Source: an uncultured Bacteroidia bacterium (lineage in GTDB: Bacteria > Bacteroidota > Bacteroidia > Bacteroidales > F082). From it: a stretch of DNA of 64,000 bases. The DNA lies in contig CADCGK010000012.1 in NCBI GenBank assembly GCA_902800965.1, positions 155,820 to 219,819 of the forward strand. Reading direction: 5' to 3'. Shown in pieces: positions 7,559 through 64,000 of this stretch. Under the pieces are notes generated by a model. That model did no database searches. It saw only the letters and a list, made by a program, of their open reading frames with translations, and had not been told where the DNA came from. The position numbers and the translations under genes were made by a program. Positions within the stretch are counted from its first letter, which is position 1, and every line of letters begins with the position of its first letter.

Positions 7559-8459
7559 CATTCAAAACCGCTGAAACAGGGTCTTTCCCTACCTTTTTCA
7601 GCAGATTTGAGCGGTATTTCATCACCGTGTTTTGGCTTAATTCTAGGATTTCAGCTTCTTCTTTGATGCGGAATTCGAGGAAGTTAAGGATCAATAAGTC
7701 GTATTCCTGCTCGCTCAAGTCGGGATAGGTGGTTTTTAGCCGCTCGTAGGCTTTGGGATAAGTGGCATTGAAGGCTTCGATAATGCGTTTACGCTGGCTC
7801 CCTCGTGAAAGGACTTCCCTGGCCTGCCGTTGGAGATTCTCGAAAGTCTGCCGTTCGATGGCGGATTGCGCCTCGTTCAATTGTTGGTCAAAAGCCTCAC
7901 GTTCTTGGTCGTACGCCCTGCGTTGTTGGTTGTTGGTTTTACGCAACTGAAGCAACACCCATCCCATCACCAAAAGCCCCAACAAGGCTCCTGCTCCGAT
8001 AAGCAGGTATCGCTGGCGGGCATGCTTCCGTTCTTGGTTAAGGGAAAGGTCGTAGTTATCCGCCAAGAACAGCGCATATTCGTTGATTTTCGGCGTGTCG
8101 CCTTGAGCAATGGCGATATCGAGCAGATATCTTGCTGCGGTCATCTTTTCATCTGTGTCGGTTAAAAACACTTGTTCCAGATAGACTTTGGCAGAATCCT
8201 GTTGTCCTTCGAAATAGAAGTCGGTGCCAATGTTCAGCCGATGTTCTGGGTTATCAGTTGGATGAGCACTTATGGGGTTAGTAATAAAGAGGACGACAGC
8301 CGTCATTGCGAGCGAAACGCAGTGGAGCGCGGCAATCCAACCTGACCCAAAATAGCCAAGACAACTCAGGTTGGATTGCTTCGTCGTTCCTCCTCGCAAT
8401 GACGAAGGCAATGCTAACCTTCTGATAAAAAGCCATATATTCTTCAGCAGTTGCCTCAT
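7542..8459 (-). CDS. truncated TPR/TM/coiled-coil/LuxR-like HTH membrane protein (5' end built from a repeat element)
   Basis: The C-terminus LSEQEYDLLILNFLEFRIKEEAEILELSQNTVMKYRSNLLKKVG is a LuxR/GerE-type HTH pattern. One TM segment is present (YLLIGAGALLGLLVMGWVLL). The first ~45 codons are encoded by the palindromic element at 8301..8404. The start is uncertain: ATG at 8459, or the ATG inside the element near 8305. Confidence 0.55.
   Translation of the reverse strand: MRQLLKNIWLFIRRLALPSSLRGGTTKQSNLSCLGYFGSGWIAALHCVSLAMTAVVLFITNPISAHPTDNPEHRLNIGTDFYFEGQQDSAKVYLEQVFLTDTDEKMTAARYLLDIAIAQGDTPKINEYALFLADNYDLSLNQERKHARQRYLLIGAGALLGLLVMGWVLLQLRKTNNQQRRAYDQEREAFDQQLNEAQSAIERQTFENLQRQAREVLSRGSQRKRIIEAFNATYPKAYERLKTTYPDLSEQEYDLLILNFLEFRIKEEAEILELSQNTVMKYRSNLLKKVGKDPVSAVLNAMPTS
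8301..8404. repeat. palindromic REP/MITE-like element, family 1, full-length copy
   Basis: The left arm is CGTCATTGCGAG...GCAATCCAACCTGA, the loop is ~20 nt (CCCAAAATAGCCAAGACAAC) and the right arm is TCAGGTTGGATTGC...CTCGCAATGACG. The arms are reverse complements at both termini. Confidence 0.85.
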
Positions 8460-8472
8460 GCCCAAATCATTC

Positions 8473-9540
8473 TTAAATCTTTACCCTTTGAAGCACTCCT
8501 TGACTCCGTCCTGCGTCGAAATAGACACTGTAGGCATATCCGCCGTGCACCTTGAAAGCCCTCGGATAGATGCTAGAGCACGCTTTGTGAATGATGCCTA
8601 CGGTGTTTTTTGCCGGGTTGTATAGCCCAAGGTAATACATGCCATCCTTTACAAAGAGTCCGTAGGTCTTACCCATGAGTTCATCCGTGAGGAATTGGTT
8701 TTTAAAACTAGATTCTTCCGACAGGATTTTCAACGGCCGTGGATCGGACACCTTGAAATCCTTGTCAACTTCCACGATCTTGAGTCCCTGTAGGTCGATC
8801 AATTGCAGAAGATCGTTGTATTTCAAGGCTGCCGTATGGTATTCTTTAGCAACATTTTGACGGTACCACAGGATCTGAAGATGGATGTTTAAGGTTTTGT
8901 TCAGGCGTCGCAAGTCACCATCCCAAGTACCCATTCGCAGTTCATTGGCCCCGACAGGAACCGCATGGTCGTACATGGCGATGATCCTGTTCAATTGATC
9001 CTGACACATCTCTACAGCTGCCGTATTGATAAAACGGCACAAAGGATGGTTTTTCTTTTCTGGATCGTCTTTCAGGATGTACGAATAGGTTTGTGTTTGT
9101 CCGTGAAATTCCTGAACGTGGTAGTCGTGTTTATCGTAAACCATGCTGCGGAGCACATTGGCCCCGTTGAACTCCAGCACAAATCTCGCTACTTTGTCGT
9201 TGAATTCCTGTTTGGAGAACGTCGTCAAAGGCAAGGCTTTCCACTGATGATCGAAATACACCTGCAGACAGCTATCGCGATTCATCAGCAAGAAATGCCC
9301 GAAGGGGTCGATATACAGTTCCTCATACAGTTGTTGGAACTCGGTCTCGCTCAGCTTGTTTCCCTCAAGGTCGAGCAGACTCAGCACCGAGTTGCGGCTT
9401 CGGTTCTCCAGCACAAGGACTTGGTTTCCCGAAAAGGCAATATCGGCGATATAGCGGTTGCCTTTGGTCCTATAGAAGTCCTGAGCTTGGAGGCCTCCAA
9501 CCAGGCATAGCAACACAACGATGATCAAGTATCTTTTCAT
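8473..9540 (-). CDS. secreted protein of unknown function (distant relative of the 3062/4361 family, lacks the CarboxypepD_reg domain)
   Basis: The signal peptide is MKRYLIIVVLLCLVGGLQA. The C-terminal segment TYGLFVKDGMYYLGLYNPAKN...GGYAYSVYF matches the FxxFVxDGxYxL...YFLY pattern of the paralogs. Confidence 0.5.
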   Translation of the reverse strand: MKRYLIIVVLLCLVGGLQAQDFYRTKGNRYIADIAFSGNQVLVLENRSRNSVLSLLDLEGNKLSETEFQQLYEELYIDPFGHFLLMNRDSCLQVYFDHQWKALPLTTFSKQEFNDKVARFVLEFNGANVLRSMVYDKHDYHVQEFHGQTQTYSYILKDDPEKKNHPLCRFINTAAVEMCQDQLNRIIAMYDHAVPVGANELRMGTWDGDLRRLNKTLNIHLQILWYRQNVAKEYHTAALKYNDLLQLIDLQGLKIVEVDKDFKVSDPRPLKILSEESSFKNQFLTDELMGKTYGLFVKDGMYYLGLYNPAKNTVGIIHKACSSIYPRAFKVHGGYAYSVYFDAGRSQGVLQRVKI

Positions 9541-9672
9541 AGGAACAAAATTATTGAATATTTCATCGAAAAAACGGCTTAAATCATTGAATACATATTT
9601 TTTTGAAAAACTATTGAATTAACACGTTGATTTTTATGATATTAATAAATAATTTAGTATAGATTATTTAAG

Positions 9673-9815: not shown

Positions 9816-10493
9816 ATGAAATCGATTGTCATTTATCACGGTTCGACAAAGATCATCGAAAAGCCCGTTTTTGGAGTGGGAAATCCGAAGAATGATTACG
9901 GATTGGGCTTTTATTGTACCGAAAATCTTGAGCTCGCCAAAGAATGGGCAAGTACGGAACAACGCGATGGCTTTGCCAACAGCTATGAGATTGACTTGGA
10001 GGGATTGAATCTCCTCCATCTAAATCAAAAACCCTATCATATCTTGAATTGGCTCTCGATACTGTTGAAAAACAGAACGTTTGTCCTGTCCCAAGGACTG
10101 CCCACAGAAGCAAAACAATACCTGTTGAACCATTTTTTACCCGACTACAAGCCTTACGATATCATCATAGGTTATCGGGCCGATGATTCTTACTTCTCTT
10201 TTGCCAATGCCTTCTTGAACAACACTATCTCATTGGAGCAATTGCGAAAAGCAATGCATTTAGGAAACCTGGGGGAACAAATCGTATTGAAAAGTGAAAA
10301 AGCGTTTGCGAGCATCCATTTCAAGGAAAGCATCCCCGTTGACAGCAGTCTGTACTACCCGAAACGCCAAGCCCGCGACCGAAAAGCAAGAGAAGATTTC
10401 CAGAAAGAAAAAACCACAACATCACCAGTTGATGCCATCTATATGATTGATATTCTCAGACAAAAATGGACTACCGATGACCCACGCCTATAA
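9816..10493 (+). CDS. DUF3990-like protein (PARP/ART-like HGS...GFY motifs), candidate toxin/effector
   Basis: 225 aa. The motifs IYHGST (residues 6-11) and GLGFYCTE (29-36) are present, followed by GYRADDSYF and GEQIVLKSE. The ATG is at 9816. The family call is from memory. Confidence 0.6.
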   Translation: MKSIVIYHGSTKIIEKPVFGVGNPKNDYGLGFYCTENLELAKEWASTEQRDGFANSYEIDLEGLNLLHLNQKPYHILNWLSILLKNRTFVLSQGLPTEAKQYLLNHFLPDYKPYDIIIGYRADDSYFSFANAFLNNTISLEQLRKAMHLGNLGEQIVLKSEKAFASIHFKESIPVDSSLYYPKRQARDRKAREDFQKEKTTTSPVDAIYMIDILRQKWTTDDPRL

Positions 10494-11118
10494 TCACATA
10501 TATCTTGAGGATGTGATGAACAACCTCGGCATCATGTTCGACTGCGCCGTCCATGCCGCGCATTGCGACCTAATGTTGTTTTACGAGATGTTTCTGTCAA
10601 GCGGGGTCGCCTCACAAATCGAGGCGGGCAATCCCCGTTACCTGTCGGGACTGTCGGGGATGGAGTTGATGCAACTGGTTTTGGATAAAACCCTTGACAA
10701 AACGGTGCCCGTCCTGTCCTACGCACCTTTTGACCGCACCCCCGAATATTGGGCCGGTTGGGCGTTGGCCTATTATCAATGGTATCGTGCCCGATCGTTT
10801 TCGTTTCTTAAAAGCAATGGATTAAACATCAACACCTTGCTTTCGCTTTATCCAACCTTGCATGAGGCCGACCTTTCCAAATTTGTAAAAACAGCTGATG
10901 CGCTGATCGAGCAAGGTCTCCAACACCGAAAGAACCCACTGAAAACCATCCGCAAGCAGTCCCGTCTCACTCAAAAAAAGTTAGCTGACTTGTCAGGGGT
11001 TTCACTTCGCATGATTCAAGCTTACGAACAGGGCGACCAGGACATCACCAAAGCGGAAGTACGGTCGGTCCTCGCACTGTCACGAGTGCTCGGATGTCGT
11101 CCTGAGGTGATCCTATGA
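10477..11118 (+). CDS. XRE-family HTH protein with uncharacterized N-terminal domain (partner of the DUF3990-like gene)
   Basis: The C-terminus is IRKQSRLTQKKLADLSGVSLRMIQAYEQGDQDITKAEVRSVLALSRVL, a classic XRE HTH. It overlaps the upstream gene end by 17 nt when started at the ATG at 10477; the ORF is open from 10447. Confidence 0.65.
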   Translation: MTHAYNHIYLEDVMNNLGIMFDCAVHAAHCDLMLFYEMFLSSGVASQIEAGNPRYLSGLSGMELMQLVLDKTLDKTVPVLSYAPFDRTPEYWAGWALAYYQWYRARSFSFLKSNGLNINTLLSLYPTLHEADLSKFVKTADALIEQGLQHRKNPLKTIRKQSRLTQKKLADLSGVSLRMIQAYEQGDQDITKAEVRSVLALSRVLGCRPEVIL

Positions 11119-11142
11119 CGTTAACCCAAGAAGTAACGCTCT

Positions 11143-11598
11143 TTACAGCCTTTCAAAATCCACAATCGCGCGAAGCGAGGCCCAATCCTCCTCTTCCATC
11201 GTCTCCAAGGCCTCGTCACTGAAGTATAACTCAATGCTTAGATCGGTTTTCGTGAGTATGTTGATGGTTCCCAAGACATCGTATGAGTTCACAACATCAA
11301 CTCCCGGTTCAATAATGTGCTCTGAATACCAATCCTTCAAAACGAGATGGCTTCCATGAAGCGTGTATTCCTTGGCAGCTTCTTCCCCACCCATAGCTAG
11401 GACAACCTTTCCGTTTTTCTTGAATTCCATAGTGATTCCTTCTCCGATTGGAATGGATTCCGATTGTTCGCCATTCGTTATGGTGAAGTTGACAATTTTC
11501 CATTTACCGTAGATTTGAGGGTCTTTCCCACAAGAGGATAAAATAGCCACTACTGTCACCATGAACAGCAAAGCAAAGATGTTTCTAATTGTTTTCAT
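11143..11598 (-). CDS. small lipoprotein of unknown function (lipocalin-like?)
   Basis: The signal peptide ends in a lipobox (ILSSCGK). 151 aa. It begins YGKWKIVNFTI, as in lipocalin-like lipoproteins. Confidence 0.5.
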   Translation of the reverse strand: MKTIRNIFALLFMVTVVAILSSCGKDPQIYGKWKIVNFTITNGEQSESIPIGEGITMEFKKNGKVVLAMGGEEAAKEYTLHGSHLVLKDWYSEHIIEPGVDVVNSYDVLGTINILTKTDLSIELYFSDEALETMEEEDWASLRAIVDFERL

Positions 11599-57598: not shown

Positions 57599-57718
57599 AG
57601 TATCATATTAATTCAAAGCGTCAAAGATACAACAATTAATTGAATTAGCGATTTTCTTTTTTAGCTTGATTGTAAGCTTTTAGTTCTTATCTTTGGAGCA
57701 ATTTTTATAAAATGCGCA

Positions 57719-58690
57719 ATGGACGAAAAAAACAACAAGTGGCTGGTGGTTGTCAACCCGCAGGCTTCCATAGGGAAATGCAGTAAAGACTGGCCAGAGA
57801 TAAAGCGTCTTCTTGATGACAGCGGCATGGAATATGACGCTGTTTTGACCGAATATCCGAAACACGCAATAGAGATTGTCAGACAAAACATCACAGAGAA
57901 AGGCTATAAAAAGATTGTATCTATCGGCGGCGACGGTACGAATAATGAGGTCATCAACGGCATTTTTACCCAACAGCGTTTCCCGACATCGGAAATCACC
58001 ATGGGTATCATCCCCATTGGAACGGGCAATGATTGGCGCAGGACTTTCAACTTCAATATCGATCATCAAGAGAACGTAAACGTTTTAAAAAATGGACATA
58101 CGATCTTACATGATGTCGGCAAAGTGACCTATTACAACAACGGAGATCCTCAAGAGAGATATTTCCTGAATGCCGCCGGCACGGGACTGAACGAGATGGT
58201 CTGCAACCGTACCAATCAACTGAAATCACAAGGAAAAGGTGGATCCGTACGCTATATGCTCAACACGGCCAATTGCCTCTTGCGTTTTAAATGCGTGCAT
58301 GTCCAGCTGGATATTGACGATCAACGGGTTTTCGACGATGAAATATTGAGTCTGTCTGTCGGCAATGGAAAATACAATGGCGGCGGTATGATGATGATGC
58401 CGAAGGCCATCCCGAACGATGGATTGTTCGATATCACGGTGGTCAAAAAAGTGAGCATGGTGAAATTTGCTGCCAGCATCAACAACATCTATGACGGCAC
58501 CTTTGTCGATAAACTCAAAGAGGTGACTACCTACCGAGGCAAGAAGATCCGTATTGTATCGATTCCAGCACACCAATTGCTATTGGAAACCGAAGGCGAA
58601 ACCTTGACCAATTCCCCCTTCGATTTCGAAATCCTTCCCTCCTCCATCAATATGGTAGTCCCAGAAAAAACTGAACAACTGAATAACTGA
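57719..58690 (+). CDS. diacylglycerol/lipid kinase family protein (YegS/BmrU-like)
   Basis: The motifs SIGGDGTNNEV and PIGTGNDW are present. A TATCTTTG box lies upstream at 57688..57695. Confidence 0.85.
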   Translation: MDEKNNKWLVVVNPQASIGKCSKDWPEIKRLLDDSGMEYDAVLTEYPKHAIEIVRQNITEKGYKKIVSIGGDGTNNEVINGIFTQQRFPTSEITMGIIPIGTGNDWRRTFNFNIDHQENVNVLKNGHTILHDVGKVTYYNNGDPQERYFLNAAGTGLNEMVCNRTNQLKSQGKGGSVRYMLNTANCLLRFKCVHVQLDIDDQRVFDDEILSLSVGNGKYNGGGMMMMPKAIPNDGLFDITVVKKVSMVKFAASINNIYDGTFVDKLKEVTTYRGKKIRIVSIPAHQLLLETEGETLTNSPFDFEILPSSINMVVPEKTEQLNN

Positions 58691-58706
58691 ACAACTATAA
58701 ACTGTC
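58669..58706 (+). promoter_or_regulatory. AACTGAAC-word leader bridging the lipid kinase end and the pgk start
   Basis: AACTGAACAACTGAATAACTGAACAACTATAAACTGTC sits immediately before the pgk ATG. It also encodes the kinase tail EQLNN*. Confidence 0.6.
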
Positions 58707-59960
58707 ATGACGAACATCGATCAAGTAAATTTTGAAAACAAACGCGTGGTCATCCGCGTCGATTTCAACGTCCCGTTGGACGACAACTTCAACATCACCG
58801 ATGACACCCGTATGCGTGCCGCCCTGCCGACTATCAACAAAGTTTTGAATGACAAGGGTATGGTCGTGCTGATGTCACATCTTGGCCGTCCGAAGAAAAA
58901 TCCGGACCCGAAGTTCTCCATCAGACCTATCATCGCTCACCTCTCTGAGCTTTTGAATCGTCCTGTGCTTTTCGCTGAGGATTGCATGAAAGCCGCCGAC
59001 CAAGTGGCCGCTATGAAACCCGGTGAGGTGCTCGTACTCGAAAACCTCCGTTTCTATGCCGAGGAAGAAGGCAAGCCGCGTGGCATCGAGAAAGGCGAAG
59101 AGGGCTACGATGAAGCTAAGAAAGCCATCAAAGCTTCGCAGAAGGAGTTTACTAAGACCCTGGCCAGCTATGGCGAGTATTACATCAACGACGCCTTCGG
59201 CACCGCTCACCGCGCCCATGCTTCGACAGCGCTGATTGCCGACTATTTCGATGCCGACCACAAGATGTTCGGTTACCTGATGGGCAAGGAGGTGGCCGCC
59301 GTCAACAAGGTGATGAACGACATCCAACGTCCCTTCACCGCCATCATGGGTGGCTCGAAAGTCTCCACGAAGATCGAAATCATCGAGAACCTGCTCACCA
59401 AGGTGGATAACCTCATCCTCTGCGGCGGCATGACCTATACCTTCAAGCGTGCCTTGGGTGGACATATCGGCAACTCCATCTGCGAAGAGGACAAACTCGA
59501 CCTCGCCTTGGATATCATCGAGAAAGCCAAGCAGAAAGGTGTCAACCTCTATCTCTCGTTCGACGTGGTGGCTGGCGACAAGTTCTCGAACGACGCCAAC
59601 ACCATGGTGGTCGATCCGATGAACGTGCCCGACGGCTGGGAAGGCATGGACTGCGGTCCCGAGAGCCGCAAGTTCTACGCCGGCATCATCAAACAGTCGA
59701 AGACCGTGCTTTGGAATGGTCCCTGCGGTGTGTTTGAGTTCGACAAGTTTGCCGAAGGTTCCCGCGCCTTGGCTGAAGCCATCGTGGAAGCTACCGAACA
59801 AAACGGAGCCTTTACCCTTATCGGTGGTGGTGACTCCGTGGCATGCATCAACAAGTTCGGACTTGCCGACCGCGTGAGCTACGTCTCCACAGGAGGTGGC
59901 GCCCTGCTCGAAGCCATCGAAGGCAAAGAACTGCCCGGCATCGCAGCCATCAAGAAATAA
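58707..59960 (+). CDS. pgk: phosphoglycerate kinase
   Basis: The motifs [25 protein letters not shown] and GGGDS are present. 417 aa. Confidence 0.95.
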
Positions 59961-61105
59961 TGTCTAAGACTTTAGTCAATATCATCACTCGCGAGCATCC
60001 TATCGCCGCTTACCTCTTTGTGAAAGAATACTTTGAGGAAGGCGATAGGTTGCTCTTTGTCTCGGCCAACGACAGTTTCGATTGTATCACCCCTTTGGTC
60101 AAGGTATTGAAAATCGATCCGAGCTTGGTGCAGCGCATTGTGCTCAGGCGTATCGCCGACAGCTATACCTACGAACGCATCTGCCGCACCATCAATAACG
60201 GCGTCAACCAAGAAACACAATATTACGTCAATCTGGCAGGCGGCAGCCGATACATGGCGCTATCGGTGCAACATGTGTTTTCAAATTACAACAGCATTTT
60301 CTTTTATACCCAAACCCAACAAAACATCATCGTAAGGACGATCTTCGACAATAGCATTTACGACAACGACGACCAGATCATACCCATCAAATACAAGATG
60401 AACCTGGCCGAATATTTCGATGCCTATGGCTTGAGTCACGATCTTGAAAACTTGGAGCCACCCATCTCCGATGAAACCAAGGCACGACAAATGTTTAACC
60501 TGTTTGCAAAGCAGCAAATAAGGAGCAATGAATACAGGATTTTAGATGTATTACGGGAGAAATACCGTGGATGGAAATACCTGAAGATCGCTGAAGCGGA
60601 ACAGCCTGTCAAAGAAAGCATGACAACCGTACCAAATCTGGGCAAGTTCTTGGATTTCATCAAGTTTATCCCAAAGGAAGAAGGTGTGCTAAGCCAACAG
60701 GAACTTGAATACTTGACAGGAGGATGGTTTGAGGAGTATGTCTATCATCTCATCAAGACTGTGGTACAACCCGACGACATCGCCATGGGCGTGCGCATTG
60801 ACGGTTGTACCGATATCAAGCATAACAACGAGTTGGATGTTTGTTTCATCAAGAACAACCAGATGCATGTCATCGAATGCAAGAGTGGTATCAGTTCGGA
60901 AAGCATGTTCAATGAGATTGTGTATAAAGTAAGTGCCTTGAAGGAAGTGCTGTTGGGGGTGGATTGCAACTCCTACATATTCTCGTTGAAGAAAGACCCG
61001 ACTGGGGATTTAAAGAAGATCGCCACTTATATGGGCATTACGTTTTGCGATTACGAATGCCTCACACGTGAGGATAAATTACGGAAGGTGCTGCAGAAAA
61101 TGTGA
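59960..61105 (+). CDS. Card1/Can2-like (DUF1887) protein: CARF-like N-domain + PD-(D/E)xK nuclease C-domain
   Basis: The ATG at 59960 overlaps the pgk stop (TAATG). The N-terminal Rossmann-like region carries NLAGGSRYMA, a GGTK-like CARF motif. The C-terminus carries GGWFEEYVY...ELDVCF...HVIECKSG, a restriction-endonuclease-like D...ExK motif. 381 aa, similar in size to VC1899-type proteins. Confidence 0.65.
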   Translation: MSKTLVNIITREHPIAAYLFVKEYFEEGDRLLFVSANDSFDCITPLVKVLKIDPSLVQRIVLRRIADSYTYERICRTINNGVNQETQYYVNLAGGSRYMALSVQHVFSNYNSIFFYTQTQQNIIVRTIFDNSIYDNDDQIIPIKYKMNLAEYFDAYGLSHDLENLEPPISDETKARQMFNLFAKQQIRSNEYRILDVLREKYRGWKYLKIAEAEQPVKESMTTVPNLGKFLDFIKFIPKEEGVLSQQELEYLTGGWFEEYVYHLIKTVVQPDDIAMGVRIDGCTDIKHNNELDVCFIKNNQMHVIECKSGISSESMFNEIVYKVSALKEVLLGVDCNSYIFSLKKDPTGDLKKIATYMGITFCDYECLTREDKLRKVLQKM

Positions 61106-61951
61106 GTTTTCTTTCCCAATTCTAATCATTGCAGTTTTTCCTAAAACAATCGCCCGGTTTTCAGCTTGATGACCCGCTGGAAAACCAAAACACACGGGGT
61201 AATCGTACTCCTTCACCACATCGAAAATGGCTTGTTCAACCGTCTTTCCAAACGGATCGGGATTGTCGTGAATGTCAGTCAAACCGCCGATGACAAGCGC
61301 TTTGAGATGATCGAGTTTACCAGCACGTTTCAAGGCGTACATCATTCGTTCCACATGATAAATGTATTCATCAACATCCTCTAGGAACAAGATTTTGCCA
61401 TCTGTTTCGGGGAAAGAATTGGAACCCAACATGCCACACAACACGGATAGATTGCCTCCTACCATCAAACCTTCAGCATCGCCAAGGCGATTCAACGGAT
61501 ACGAAGGCCATTCATAATGAAGGGGTTTTCCTGTCAAAGCATCGATGAGCGACTGAAGGGCCTCAGGGGTCTTGTTGGCCAAGATATGAGGCATGGAGGC
61601 ATGGATGGAAGGGATGCCCAATCGGCTTAACTTGCCATGAAACACAGTGACGTCACTGAAACCGATGATGGGCTTGGGATGCTTCATGAACTTCGAAAAG
61701 TCAAGTTTGTCGATGATGCGTATGCTGCCATAGCCGCCACGTGCCATCCAGATGGCGTCAATATCGTCACGGTCCATGTATTCTTGGATGATGGAACAAC
61801 GTAAAGTATCGCTGCCGGCGGCAATGTTATCGACCGAATACAAACGGTTGTCGAAAACCGATTCAAAACCATGGTCATGGAGCCAACGGATGGCAAATTC
61901 CATCTCATCAGGAGTTACTTTACGGGCTGGGGCGGCAATGGCGATCTTCAT
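61079..61951 (-). CDS. LD-carboxypeptidase (peptidase S66 family)
   Basis: It has the nucleophile context IIGFSDVT and 290-aa S66 colinearity. Its 3' end overlaps the previous gene by 27 nt. Confidence 0.75.
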   Translation of the reverse strand: MKIAIAAPARKVTPDEMEFAIRWLHDHGFESVFDNRLYSVDNIAAGSDTLRCSIIQEYMDRDDIDAIWMARGGYGSIRIIDKLDFSKFMKHPKPIIGFSDVTVFHGKLSRLGIPSIHASMPHILANKTPEALQSLIDALTGKPLHYEWPSYPLNRLGDAEGLMVGGNLSVLCGMLGSNSFPETDGKILFLEDVDEYIYHVERMMYALKRAGKLDHLKALVIGGLTDIHDNPDPFGKTVEQAIFDVVKEYDYPVCFGFPAGHQAENRAIVLGKTAMIRIGKENSHFLQHLP

Positions 61952-61994
61952 AACGGCGAAATTTAACGGCGAATTTTACGAATTAAGCGAATTA
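61952..61994. repeat. family 2 element, half copy with duplicated head
   Basis: AACGGCGAAATTTAACGGCGAATTTTACGAATTAAGCGAATTA fills the whole spacer between the LD-carboxypeptidase start and the MORN gene stop. Confidence 0.75.
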
Positions 61995-63482
61995 GAGGGT
62001 GGATCTTAGAACTTCGTCTTTGTCTTGTTGATATGTTTCTTCGAGAAAGAGTTCGCCGTCGTCAAGGTATTTTTTCCAGACACCGTTTCGGATGCCGCCT
62101 GAATAGGTCTGTGACTCGCGAAGCCTGCCGTTAGGGTAGTAATGGAGATGCTCTCCATCGGGATAACCACCTTTGAAACTGCCTTTGAAAGCCAGCTTCC
62201 CGTTGGAATAATAGGATACCCACTCCCCTACTTGCTGGTCGTTGCGGTATTCTCCTTCTGAAAACACATCGCCCGACTGTTCTTTCCATTTACCTGTTTT
62301 CATGCCATCGAAATAGGATCCTTCTGCGATGACTTTCCCATCTTCGTCGTATTCAATGTATTTTCCTTCTGGTGCTCCGTCGAAGAAATCTTCATTGATC
62401 TGAACTTTTCCAGAGGGGTAATACCATGTCCAAGTGCCATCAAAACGACCGTCTTTATAGTTGCCTACCTGTTCCAACACCTTATTGGGATAATAGTATT
62501 TCCATACACCGGATTTCTTTCCATTGATGAAAAGTCCCTGGGCGCGCAAGGTGCTGTCGGGATAAAACTCCAGCCATTCGCCGCGGCGGGTGCCATCAGT
62601 GTCCATGATGCCAGATTGGACCAAGCGACCGTTTTTATAGATCTGTGAGCTGATTACATTACCGTTCTCATCGAATTCACGCCAAGTGCCTTCACGTTTG
62701 CCGCCACGGAACGAAGCTTCTCTTTTGACACGGCCGTTAGGATAGTATTCATGCTGCATCTGCAATGGCTTTGTCTCACTTTCAATCACTTGTTCCACAT
62801 CATTTACATATTTCGTGATGCGTTTCAGGTTTCCTTTTTCATCATAAAGCTTGTAATAGCCGTCTCGAAGACCATGTTTATAATAGATTTCCGATTTCAG
62901 CGCAAAATTGTCGTAAAACTCCTTCCAATAGCCATGTTTCCGGCCTTGTTTGTCATAACGGTTCAGTACTTCCCTTGTATTGAGGAAGCCTTTTTTATAG
63001 GTAATGATCTCAATAAGCCTGCCAGTGGTGTCATACACAGGTGAGATGCCGTGTTCATAACCATCTTTGATGGGAATTACTTGTAGCAAATGGTATTTTC
63101 TATCGTAACGACGGCTTTGTTCGCTCCTGACATTGTTGACAAAATAGTCTTCCTGAATTTCATCTGAAAGGTATGTTTTTCGGATTCCGTTTTTTAAATC
63201 GTTGCGATAATTGACAGCCAGCGTGGTATCCCCTTCCTCTGAGTAAAAGATCCACAGACCGTCCAACATGAAATTCTTACGGTCACCTTCCGATTTCAAC
63301 TGTCCATTCTCATAATAGGTCTTCCAATAGCCGTCTGGTTTGCCATCACGTAAAGTGCCTTCACTTGAAATACTGTCGTTGGCATACCTGAATACTTTGT
63401 ATTCAGTCTGCGCCACAACTGAAACACAGGAAAACAGCGTGATTATCAATGCTAAAGCTATCCTATTATTCATAACAATCAT
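61992..63482 (-). CDS. MORN-repeat (YwqK-family) secreted protein
   Basis: A signal peptide is followed by about 18 tandem G.W..YY.NG.L...G.Y..G..dG.W MORN-variant repeats. Confidence 0.75.
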   Translation of the reverse strand: MIVMNNRIALALIITLFSCVSVVAQTEYKVFRYANDSISSEGTLRDGKPDGYWKTYYENGQLKSEGDRKNFMLDGLWIFYSEEGDTTLAVNYRNDLKNGIRKTYLSDEIQEDYFVNNVRSEQSRRYDRKYHLLQVIPIKDGYEHGISPVYDTTGRLIEIITYKKGFLNTREVLNRYDKQGRKHGYWKEFYDNFALKSEIYYKHGLRDGYYKLYDEKGNLKRITKYVNDVEQVIESETKPLQMQHEYYPNGRVKREASFRGGKREGTWREFDENGNVISSQIYKNGRLVQSGIMDTDGTRRGEWLEFYPDSTLRAQGLFINGKKSGVWKYYYPNKVLEQVGNYKDGRFDGTWTWYYPSGKVQINEDFFDGAPEGKYIEYDEDGKVIAEGSYFDGMKTGKWKEQSGDVFSEGEYRNDQQVGEWVSYYSNGKLAFKGSFKGGYPDGEHLHYYPNGRLRESQTYSGGIRNGVWKKYLDDGELFLEETYQQDKDEVLRSTL

Positions 63483-64000
63483 CCTTCATCTCAAAATGCA
63501 AAACTAATAAAAACTTCGATTTGAACCGAGGGGGGTTTCAACCATCTATCATTAATTCATCATCAATTTTTTATAAAAATTTTGTTGACTGAATGATTAA
63601 TATGTTTGTGAACAATCGCATAACTTTTTGAAAAAAATCTTGTTTTTTTTGATTGAAATGTTATTTAAAGAAATTTGTTTTTATCAGAAATTTCATTTTC
63701 AAGCAGTTCGAATTTTCAAAGAAAAAAATGAAAAAATTTTTTGTAGAAATAAGTATCATATCGTTTTCAATTTTTTGGTGTTCATTTATTTTTATTTCGG
63801 GGAAAAAATTATTCTCTGTTTCTTAAATGAACACCCAATCTGTTTTATAAGAATTTATCAACAATAAAGCTGTTGATAAGTTTATAAGTAATTAAAAATT
63901 AACAATTTATAATTAATAGTAAGAAAACGACAAAAAGTTAAAAGGCTCATAAATAAAGGGTTATTATTGTGAGTCTTCGGATAAAAACATACCTTTGCGA

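Follow-up and report, generated by a model that had tools for sequence, protein, structure and literature searches.

What could control a nuclease of the type III CRISPR arsenal that is encoded directly behind a glycolytic gene, far from any CRISPR system? The question arises from a 64,000-nucleotide stretch (hereafter the window) of the genome of an uncultured Bacteroidia bacterium, where an open reading frame (ORF) at 59960..61105 (+ strand) follows the phosphoglycerate kinase gene pgk. We find that the ORF is real and that its 381-aa product is an intact, full-length member of the Can2/Card1 family (DUF1887, CARF4 + PD-(D/E)xK). The gene is a vertically inherited, stand-alone chromosomal gene, fixed between pgk and an LD-carboxypeptidase gene (ldc) in an uncultured rumen Bacteroidales genus. 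Its CARF and nuclease domains are both under strong purifying selection in genomes devoid of Cas10.

A full-length Can2/Card1-family nuclease in a genome without Cas10

Card1 of Treponema succinifaciens (6WXW, 6WXX, 6XL1) and Can2 of Sulfobacillus thermosulfidooxidans (7BDV) are type III CARF + PD-(D/E)xK nucleases that are turned on by cyclic tetra-adenylate (cA4). VC1899 of Vibrio cholerae (1XMX), the protein on which DUF1887 was founded, is the orphan already published for this family, and cA4 does not regulate it (PMC7969007). A preliminary description of the window, made from its letters alone, had assigned the ORF to this architecture, which is recovered by Pfam, PADLOC, searches of PDB sequences and structure prediction alike. 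Pfam identifies PF23400 (CARF_Card1, 4.8e-10) over residues 5-152 and PF09002 (Card1_endonuc, 2.2e-20) over residues 250-345; the PADLOC model CARF4--CARF_PDDEXK matches end to end at 9e-60, and NCBIfam holds no model for the 381-aa protein. The best phmmer matches among PDB sequences are Card1 (2e-14), Can2 (6e-13) and VC1899 (2e-8). With a profile of 22 sequences, the same three are retrieved at 5e-38, 1e-25 and 9e-18, respectively.

An AlphaFold2 model built from 39 relatives reaches a pLDDT of 87.1 and a pTM of 0.85. Compared by Foldseek, it superposes on cA4-bound Card1 (6xl1) with a TM-score of 0.77, on apo Card1 with 0.74, on VC1899 and Cdn1 with 0.73 each, 9u49 being among the entries at this score, and on Can2 (7bdv) with 0.70.

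The motifs singled out in the preliminary description all align with Card1. NLAGGSRYMA (aa 91-100), likened there to the GGTK loop, is part of NLAGGSRYMAL, aligned to NITGGTKIMSL of Card1 and NVTGGTKIMAL of Can2. GGWFEEYVY is found with the same letters in Card1, and ELDVCF and HVIECKSG, read as a PD-(D/E)xK pattern, are the Card1 nuclease motifs: ELDV...VIECKS of the ORF is aligned to ELDV...VIECKS of Card1. D293 falls on Card1 D294, the residue mutated in the D294N entry 6xl1. Altogether, three features of the family are present: a Card1-type CARF domain with its GG[ST][KR] loop, a C-terminal E...D...ExK nuclease and the fold of the solved members.

Along the gene (381 codons and a stop, + strand), the CARF domain (aa 1-150) covers 59960..60409, with the GGSR loop (aa 94-97) at 60239-60250. 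Further marks of this domain are Pro14, Y116, the string Q118-T119-x-Q121-N122 and a SIYDNDD insert at aa 132-138. It is followed by a middle region (aa 151-245, 60410..60694) that is helical in the AlphaFold2 model and is the most variable part of the protein, both by identity and by the per-domain ratio of nonsynonymous to synonymous substitution rates (dN/dS). The PD-(D/E)xK domain (aa 246-381, 60695..61102) carries the catalytic residues E258 (60731-60733), D293 (60836-60838), E306 (60875-60877) and K308 (60881-60883).

With Card1 and Can2 the protein shares the two-domain architecture, the fold, the catalytic E...D...ExK, the GGxK/R loop and a conserved pocket tyrosine. In contrast to them, it has no Cas10 in its host genome and is encoded in a housekeeping operon, and identity is only ~20-23%. 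The lysine of GG[ST]K is changed to arginine, the SxQT loop becomes T-R-E-H-P with an inserted proline, T42 of Can2, an adenine contact, is replaced by alanine, and an acidic 8-residue insert, SIYDNDDQ, is added. The protein resembles VC1899 in its intact nuclease motif, in the arginine at the position of Can2 K99, in its fold and in the lack of a type III CRISPR system in the host. However, the two are only 16% identical by structural alignment and belong to separate lineages, and the clade of the window protein, unlike VC1899, can be traced to type III-linked paralogs of the same genus.

The window belongs to contig 12 of a 2.69-Mb assembly in 21 contigs, 100% complete and 0.27% contaminated. 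It contains no cas gene, CRISPR array or cyclase, as the preliminary description had stated, and this holds for the whole 100%-complete genome. Genome-wide six-frame searches detected no Cas10 (PF22335, TIGR02578, TIGR02577), Cas1, RAMP, CD-NTase/SMODS or GGDEF protein, and k-mer and TRF scans of the genome no CRISPR array; the genome shows neither a type III locus that could serve the gene in trans nor another oligonucleotide cyclase among those looked for. The only cyclic-adenylate-making enzyme found is a DAC-domain synthase of cyclic di-AMP (c-di-AMP). The nearest public genome, a metagenome-assembled Bacteroidales genome from sheep reticulum (G061), encodes a 98% identical protein; it is also without Cas10, but possesses a CD-NTase.

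Two kinds of candidates were rejected in the course of these searches. The sole match to mCpol (E 0.27) maps antisense to priA. On contigs 5 and 17, the k-mer scan picked up ordinary tandem repeats, alike over whole units at ~80%, and no repeat-spacer arrays; the one on contig 17 (G000:C17:423-1026), near the contig end, consists of 7 copies of a 75-nt unit, ~79% alike, and is no CRISPR array.

Descent from type III effectors and persistence under selection

We compared 51 loci drawn from one-genome-per-species collections. The base of the tree is formed by Card1-like genes with canonical SxQT and GGTK motifs, and the basal loci L068-L073 place them in csm2-csm3-csm4-csm5-card1-...-cas1-cas2-array operons. 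Next comes a group that we call R-type; GG[ST]R, an extra Pro14 and the acidic insertion SIYD[ND]DD characterize it, and L067 and L049, at its base, are still CRISPR-linked. L067 is part of a Cmr1-Cas10b-Cmr3-Cmr4-Cmr5-Cmr6 operon with Cas1, Cas2 and a 13-repeat array, the Cas10b retaining GGDD; L049 closes a csm operon, downstream of csm3-5, and adjoins another Card1-like paralog.

Nested within the R-type group is a clade of 43 rows (support 99/93) with no CRISPR genes nearby. Each of its subclades occupies one fixed chromosomal context: the pgk site, a uvrA/ribonucleotide-reductase site, or a neighbourhood of proteins of the type IX secretion system (T9SS). Taken together, tree and gene order show that the ancestors of the orphan gene were ancillary nucleases of type III CRISPR systems in Bacteroidales; the fixed context of each subclade points to vertical inheritance after the CRISPR link was lost.

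The type III-linked paralogs L067 and L049 are 45-46% identical to the window protein and have in common with it GG[ST]R, Pro14, SIYD[ND]DD and the catalytic residues. Unlike the orphan, they are found inside CRISPR-Cas operons with a GGDD Cas10. They also differ from it in the CARF domain: the orphan clade bears the signature Q118-T119-x-E121-N122 (Q-T-Q-Q at positions 118-121 of the window protein, with Q121), against D-V-E-K-N in these CRISPR-linked cousins.

How widespread the gene is was assessed in 150 species-level genomes of the genus, GTDB providing one genome per species. Matches occur in 75 of them, and 69 encode a full-length orthologue, 54-100% identical; the remainder comprises one broken copy (G138) and otherwise distant paralogs. 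The broken copy (G138:C4:42203-43303) is a pseudogene in three frame pieces with one TAA, which indicates that the gene is sometimes lost by decay. In a genome without the gene (G003), pgk and ldc are separated by an AT-rich spacer of 247 nt with no gene remnant at E <=10.

Within the genus, Cas10 occurs in 3/69 carriers and 8/81 non-carriers, and each of these Cas10 loci is adjoined by a separate Card1-like paralog of its own; in the other orphan subclades, 3/23 genomes have Cas10. Both Cas10 and CD-NTase are missing from 57 of the 69 carriers.

Without exception, the 72 aligned sequences, of which 63 are orphans, keep E258, D293, E306 and K308 of the catalytic site, so the conservation that the preliminary description proposed to check among orthologues is complete in this set. 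Nei-Gojobori estimates of dN/dS in the pgk-adjacent clade are 0.11 for the whole gene, 0.11 for the CARF domain and 0.07 for the nuclease domain; in its sister clade they are 0.06, 0.07 and 0.05, respectively, with 0.07 for pgk itself. Synonymous sites are saturated (median dS ~1.6). The sensor domain is constrained as much as the catalytic domain, and its dN/dS argues against the gene being a relic or the CARF domain mere ballast.

Operon context and neighbouring genes

The gene pgk (58707..59960, + strand; Pfam PGK, 5.9e-148) and the CARF-nuclease gene overlap by 1 nt in a TAATG junction at 59958..59962 (+ strand): the stop TAA of pgk occupies 59958-59960 and the ATG 59960-59962. At the other end, the last 27 nt of the ORF (61079..61105) overlap the convergent ldc gene (61079..61951, - strand), which encodes the N- and C-terminal domains of Peptidase_S66 according to Pfam. 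The coordinates thus bear out both overlaps reported in the preliminary description.

Its proposal that the nuclease gene is co-transcribed with pgk receives indirect support from a scan for the Bacteroidetes -7 box TAnnTTTG. The sole + strand box 5' of the CARF-nuclease gene, TATCTTTG at 57688..57695, stands 24 nt 5' of the ATG of dagk (57719..58690, + strand), a gene for a YegS/DAGK-family lipid kinase with Pfam domains DAGK_cat and YegS_C that is syntenic at every pgk-linked locus. From there to 63499, over 5.8 kb of the window (57695-63499), no -7 box occurs on either strand, and none of 15 pgk-adjacent orthologous loci has one within 400 nt upstream of the gene (0/15). A terminator scan found none between pgk and the CARF-nuclease gene. 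In a sigma-70 scan, promoter-like sites were fewer than in shuffled sequences; the sigma-70 consensus is not applicable to Bacteroidetes.

On the opposite strand, the next -7 box, TAGTTTTG at 63499..63506 (- strand), lies upstream of a gene for a MORN-repeat protein (61992..63482, - strand; Pfam), which is syntenic in related loci and would be the first of the convergent operon, followed by ldc. The simplest reading of these patterns is that of two convergent operons, dagk-pgk-card1 and MORN-ldc, with dagk as the probable first gene of the former. Between the convergent CARF-nuclease and ldc genes there is no terminator-like hairpin, and the two transcripts may collide or pair at the 27-nt overlap of their 3' ends.

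Direct adjacency to pgk, whose conservation the preliminary description had suggested verifying, is seen in 16 species (>=65% identity). A stop/start overlap is kept in 15 of these 16, in the forms T[AG]ATG, ATGA and GTGA, which is beyond what chance would leave. The sister clade (54-58% identity), one ortholog of which has the loop LNLAGGNRYMTL, has the block dagk-pgk-...-card1-ldc-MORN in 19 of the 20 sampled loci, with the gene of a T9SS-sorted protein, and sometimes that of an AAA ATPase, between pgk and card1. Of these 20 loci, 12 have a -7 box 24-47 nt before the ATG. The fusion to pgk would thereby be a derived trait of the 16-species subclade, in which the gene has lost its own promoter. 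As the sister clade maintains the same site with a promoter of its own, the coupling to pgk is no sign of a functional tie to glycolysis.

Two sister-clade loci, L084 and L098, have only ~80-100 nt between pgk and card1. There, ~60 nt upstream of the card1 ATG, a GC-rich hairpin with a T-run is followed by a TATTTTTG box. The arrangement looks like an intermediate between a separate promoter and the stop/start fusion.

Sensor pocket and possible signals

In the structure of SthCan2 with cA4, the hydrogen-bonding side chains are those of S19, D20, T42, K99, Y118 and S121 (PMC7969007). We mapped these positions onto the window protein through chained sequence alignments. They correspond to T10, R11, A36, R97, Y116 and T119, respectively; H21, another cA4 contact, corresponds to E12. 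Among the six side-chain contacts, four are therefore conservative or identical in the alignment (T10, R97, Y116 and T119) and two are changed. At four key sites, the orphan VC1899 has D9, D34, R96 and V115 (PMC7969007): its pocket is acidic and hydrophobic (D9, D34, V115), where the window protein has T10, A36 and Y116 and shares only the arginine, as R97. As aligned, the pocket of the window protein appears altered, with the adenine-contacting threonine lost, the loop rebuilt around an extra proline and lysine changed to arginine, but not wrecked like that of VC1899.

We propose that the intact orphan protein is constitutively produced and kept inactive, and that a ligand with a source other than Cas10 turns it on in a stand-alone response; to us the chances of this being correct are about even. 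The dagk-pgk operon would be transcribed with the CARF-nuclease gene as its last gene, devoid of its own promoter, and translation would proceed by termination-reinitiation at TAATG, so that the cell would always hold a pool of the nuclease. By analogy with its solved relatives, the protein is probably a homodimer. It probably stays off as long as its CARF domains are not occupied by a small nucleotide-type ligand, one with a source other than type III CRISPR. Candidates would be c-di-AMP from the DAC enzyme of the genome, 2',3'-cyclic-phosphate RNA or oligoadenylate ends, or a nucleotide derived from phage or stress. Binding would then set off the cleavage of DNA and/or RNA in a Mn/Mg-dependent manner, giving the cell a stress or abortive-infection response that stands alone. 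For a cell to tolerate a potentially toxic nuclease expressed like a housekeeping gene, the off state would have to be very tight or the range of substrates narrow.

A more specific version, to which we give tentative credence at most, holds that the orphan clade serves as an immune or stress sensor independent of Cas10: a nucleotide of endogenous origin or derived from infection would be read by the remodelled CARF pocket, and the nuclease would thereby be activated. If true, no Can2-family member before it would have had a defined ligand from outside CRISPR, and it would exemplify the conversion of a CRISPR ancillary effector into a chromosomal defence gene that is constitutively expressed and works alone. 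In RtcR, a CARF domain senses damaged tRNA ends, and the output is a transcription factor. We know of no Can2-family protein shown to read an endogenous signal without a cognate cyclase. A stand-alone TIR-SAVED effector senses host c-di-AMP in the absence of a CBASS cyclase (bioRxiv 10.1101/2025.06.19.660554), a precedent for a cyclic-oligonucleotide sensor reading an endogenous signal, although its sensor fold, SAVED, is a different one.

Several observations weigh against the proposed explanation. With four of six contacts conservative or identical, binding of cA4 or another cyclic oligoadenylate (cOA) could be possible, and the protein may be no more than a cOA receptor that awaits a cyclase. 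One carrier, G002, has both the orphan gene and a type III-B locus, and a collection with one GTDB genome per species would miss type III loci that vary between strains. CD-NTase genes (SMODS) are somewhat commoner in carriers, 9/69 against 3/81 in non-carriers, a comparison in which kinship is uncontrolled and which may reflect phylogeny only. In addition, the beta1-alpha1 loop is constant within subclades and differs between them (S/T-R-E-H, D-K-S-N, D-P-x-E, D-R-E-D), some of the other orphan subclades having Asp at position 10; these differences argue against one ligand shared by all, or against a role for the loop.

Some of these points would fit a reserve effector acting in trans, a receptor of cA4 or another cOA that is useful only when a strain-variable or incoming type III locus is in the cell. 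The type III-linked L067 and L049 share its GG[ST]R loop and SIYDNDD insert, T10, R97, Y116 and T119 are conservative counterparts of the cA4 contacts in Can2 (PMC7969007), and the type III-B locus of G002 has a GGDD Cas10b. However, Cas10 is not enriched among carriers (3/69 against 8/81, and 3/23 in the other orphan subclades), every Cas10 locus of the genus already has a linked Card1-like paralog, and the orphan signature Q118-T119-x-E121 departs from the type III-linked D-V-E-K. Saturated synonymous sites (median dS ~1.6) and a CARF dN/dS of ~0.1 speak moreover for long selection without Cas10, and we regard a reserve role as unlikely. We are equally reserved about a ligand-independent housekeeping or repair nuclease of DNA or RNA metabolism, whose CARF domain would be a dimerisation scaffold, as proposed for VC1899. 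Such an enzyme would suit a gene that keeps its position, is inherited vertically and is presumably expressed constitutively from the pgk operon, and no partner gene is common to the three orphan contexts. Yet the gene is missing from about half of the species of the genus, 100%-complete genomes included, and with the empty site of G003 and the pseudogene of G138 this patchiness is more what one expects of a defence or accessory gene. Those CARF loops that in relatives line the ligand site are also as constrained as the nuclease domain, and the pocket is polar and basic, not built with Asp and Val as in VC1899 (PMC7969007).

Two further explanations carry very little weight. The coupling itself, kept as a stop/start overlap in 15 of 16 species, could suggest a partner of glycolysis, whose CARF domain senses a Pgk-linked metabolite (ATP/ADP or 1,3-bisphosphoglycerate). 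This is highly improbable: the sister clade interposes a T9SS gene, with or without the AAA ATPase gene, and uses its own -7 box, and the two other orphan subclades reside in unrelated contexts (uvrA/ribonucleotide reductase; T9SS-protein genes), so the link to pgk is positional and recent. That the gene is a functionless, decaying remnant of a type III locus since lost would agree with the lack of a cyclase in the genome and with the stop codon and frame breaks of the G138 copy. Against it, 69 species have an unbroken frame, the catalytic residues are kept in 72 of 72 sequences and dN/dS ranges over 0.04-0.13, which leaves next to no room for a relic.

Orphan Can2-family proteins are already a published category, represented by VC1899 (PMC7969007). 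New here are the path from a CRISPR-linked to a chromosomally fixed gene, the genus-wide counts, the selection measured per domain, and the loss of promoter with fusion to pgk. VC1899, the only studied orphan of the family, yielded no ligand and almost no activity. The present clade is a cleaner test case: it has type III-linked cousins in the same genus, spans ~70 species with both domains under selection, has persisted for long without Cas10, and possesses a pocket that is altered yet polar. Comparing ligand binding and activation between the orphan and the proteins of L067 and L049 could reveal how an effector from CRISPR comes to respond to another signal.

These two CRISPR loci have features of their own. 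The III-B locus of G002 (L067:442-18800, contig 37) encodes a short Cas10b of 526 aa, with GGDD and no HD domain. Its accessory set is unusual and comprises a Schlafen/AlbA2-HTH (helix-turn-helix) protein, the R-type Card1-like nuclease, an M48 peptidase-TerB protein, a TOTE-system helicase with a TBP-like domain and two DUF7017/S1CSD-TOTE proteins; after these come Cas1, a BT4734-like protein, Cas2 and the 13-repeat array. A SAM-AMP signal for the R-type subfamily was considered and is unsupported, with no CorA among the L067 ORFs scanned. Two distinct Card1-like paralogs end the III-A operon of L049 (1-11164; csm3-5), one of 411 aa at 8307-9542 and the R-type one at 10001-11164, with a 132-aa ORF between them. 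Members of the same small-ORF family also follow the Card1-like gene in L069-L073.

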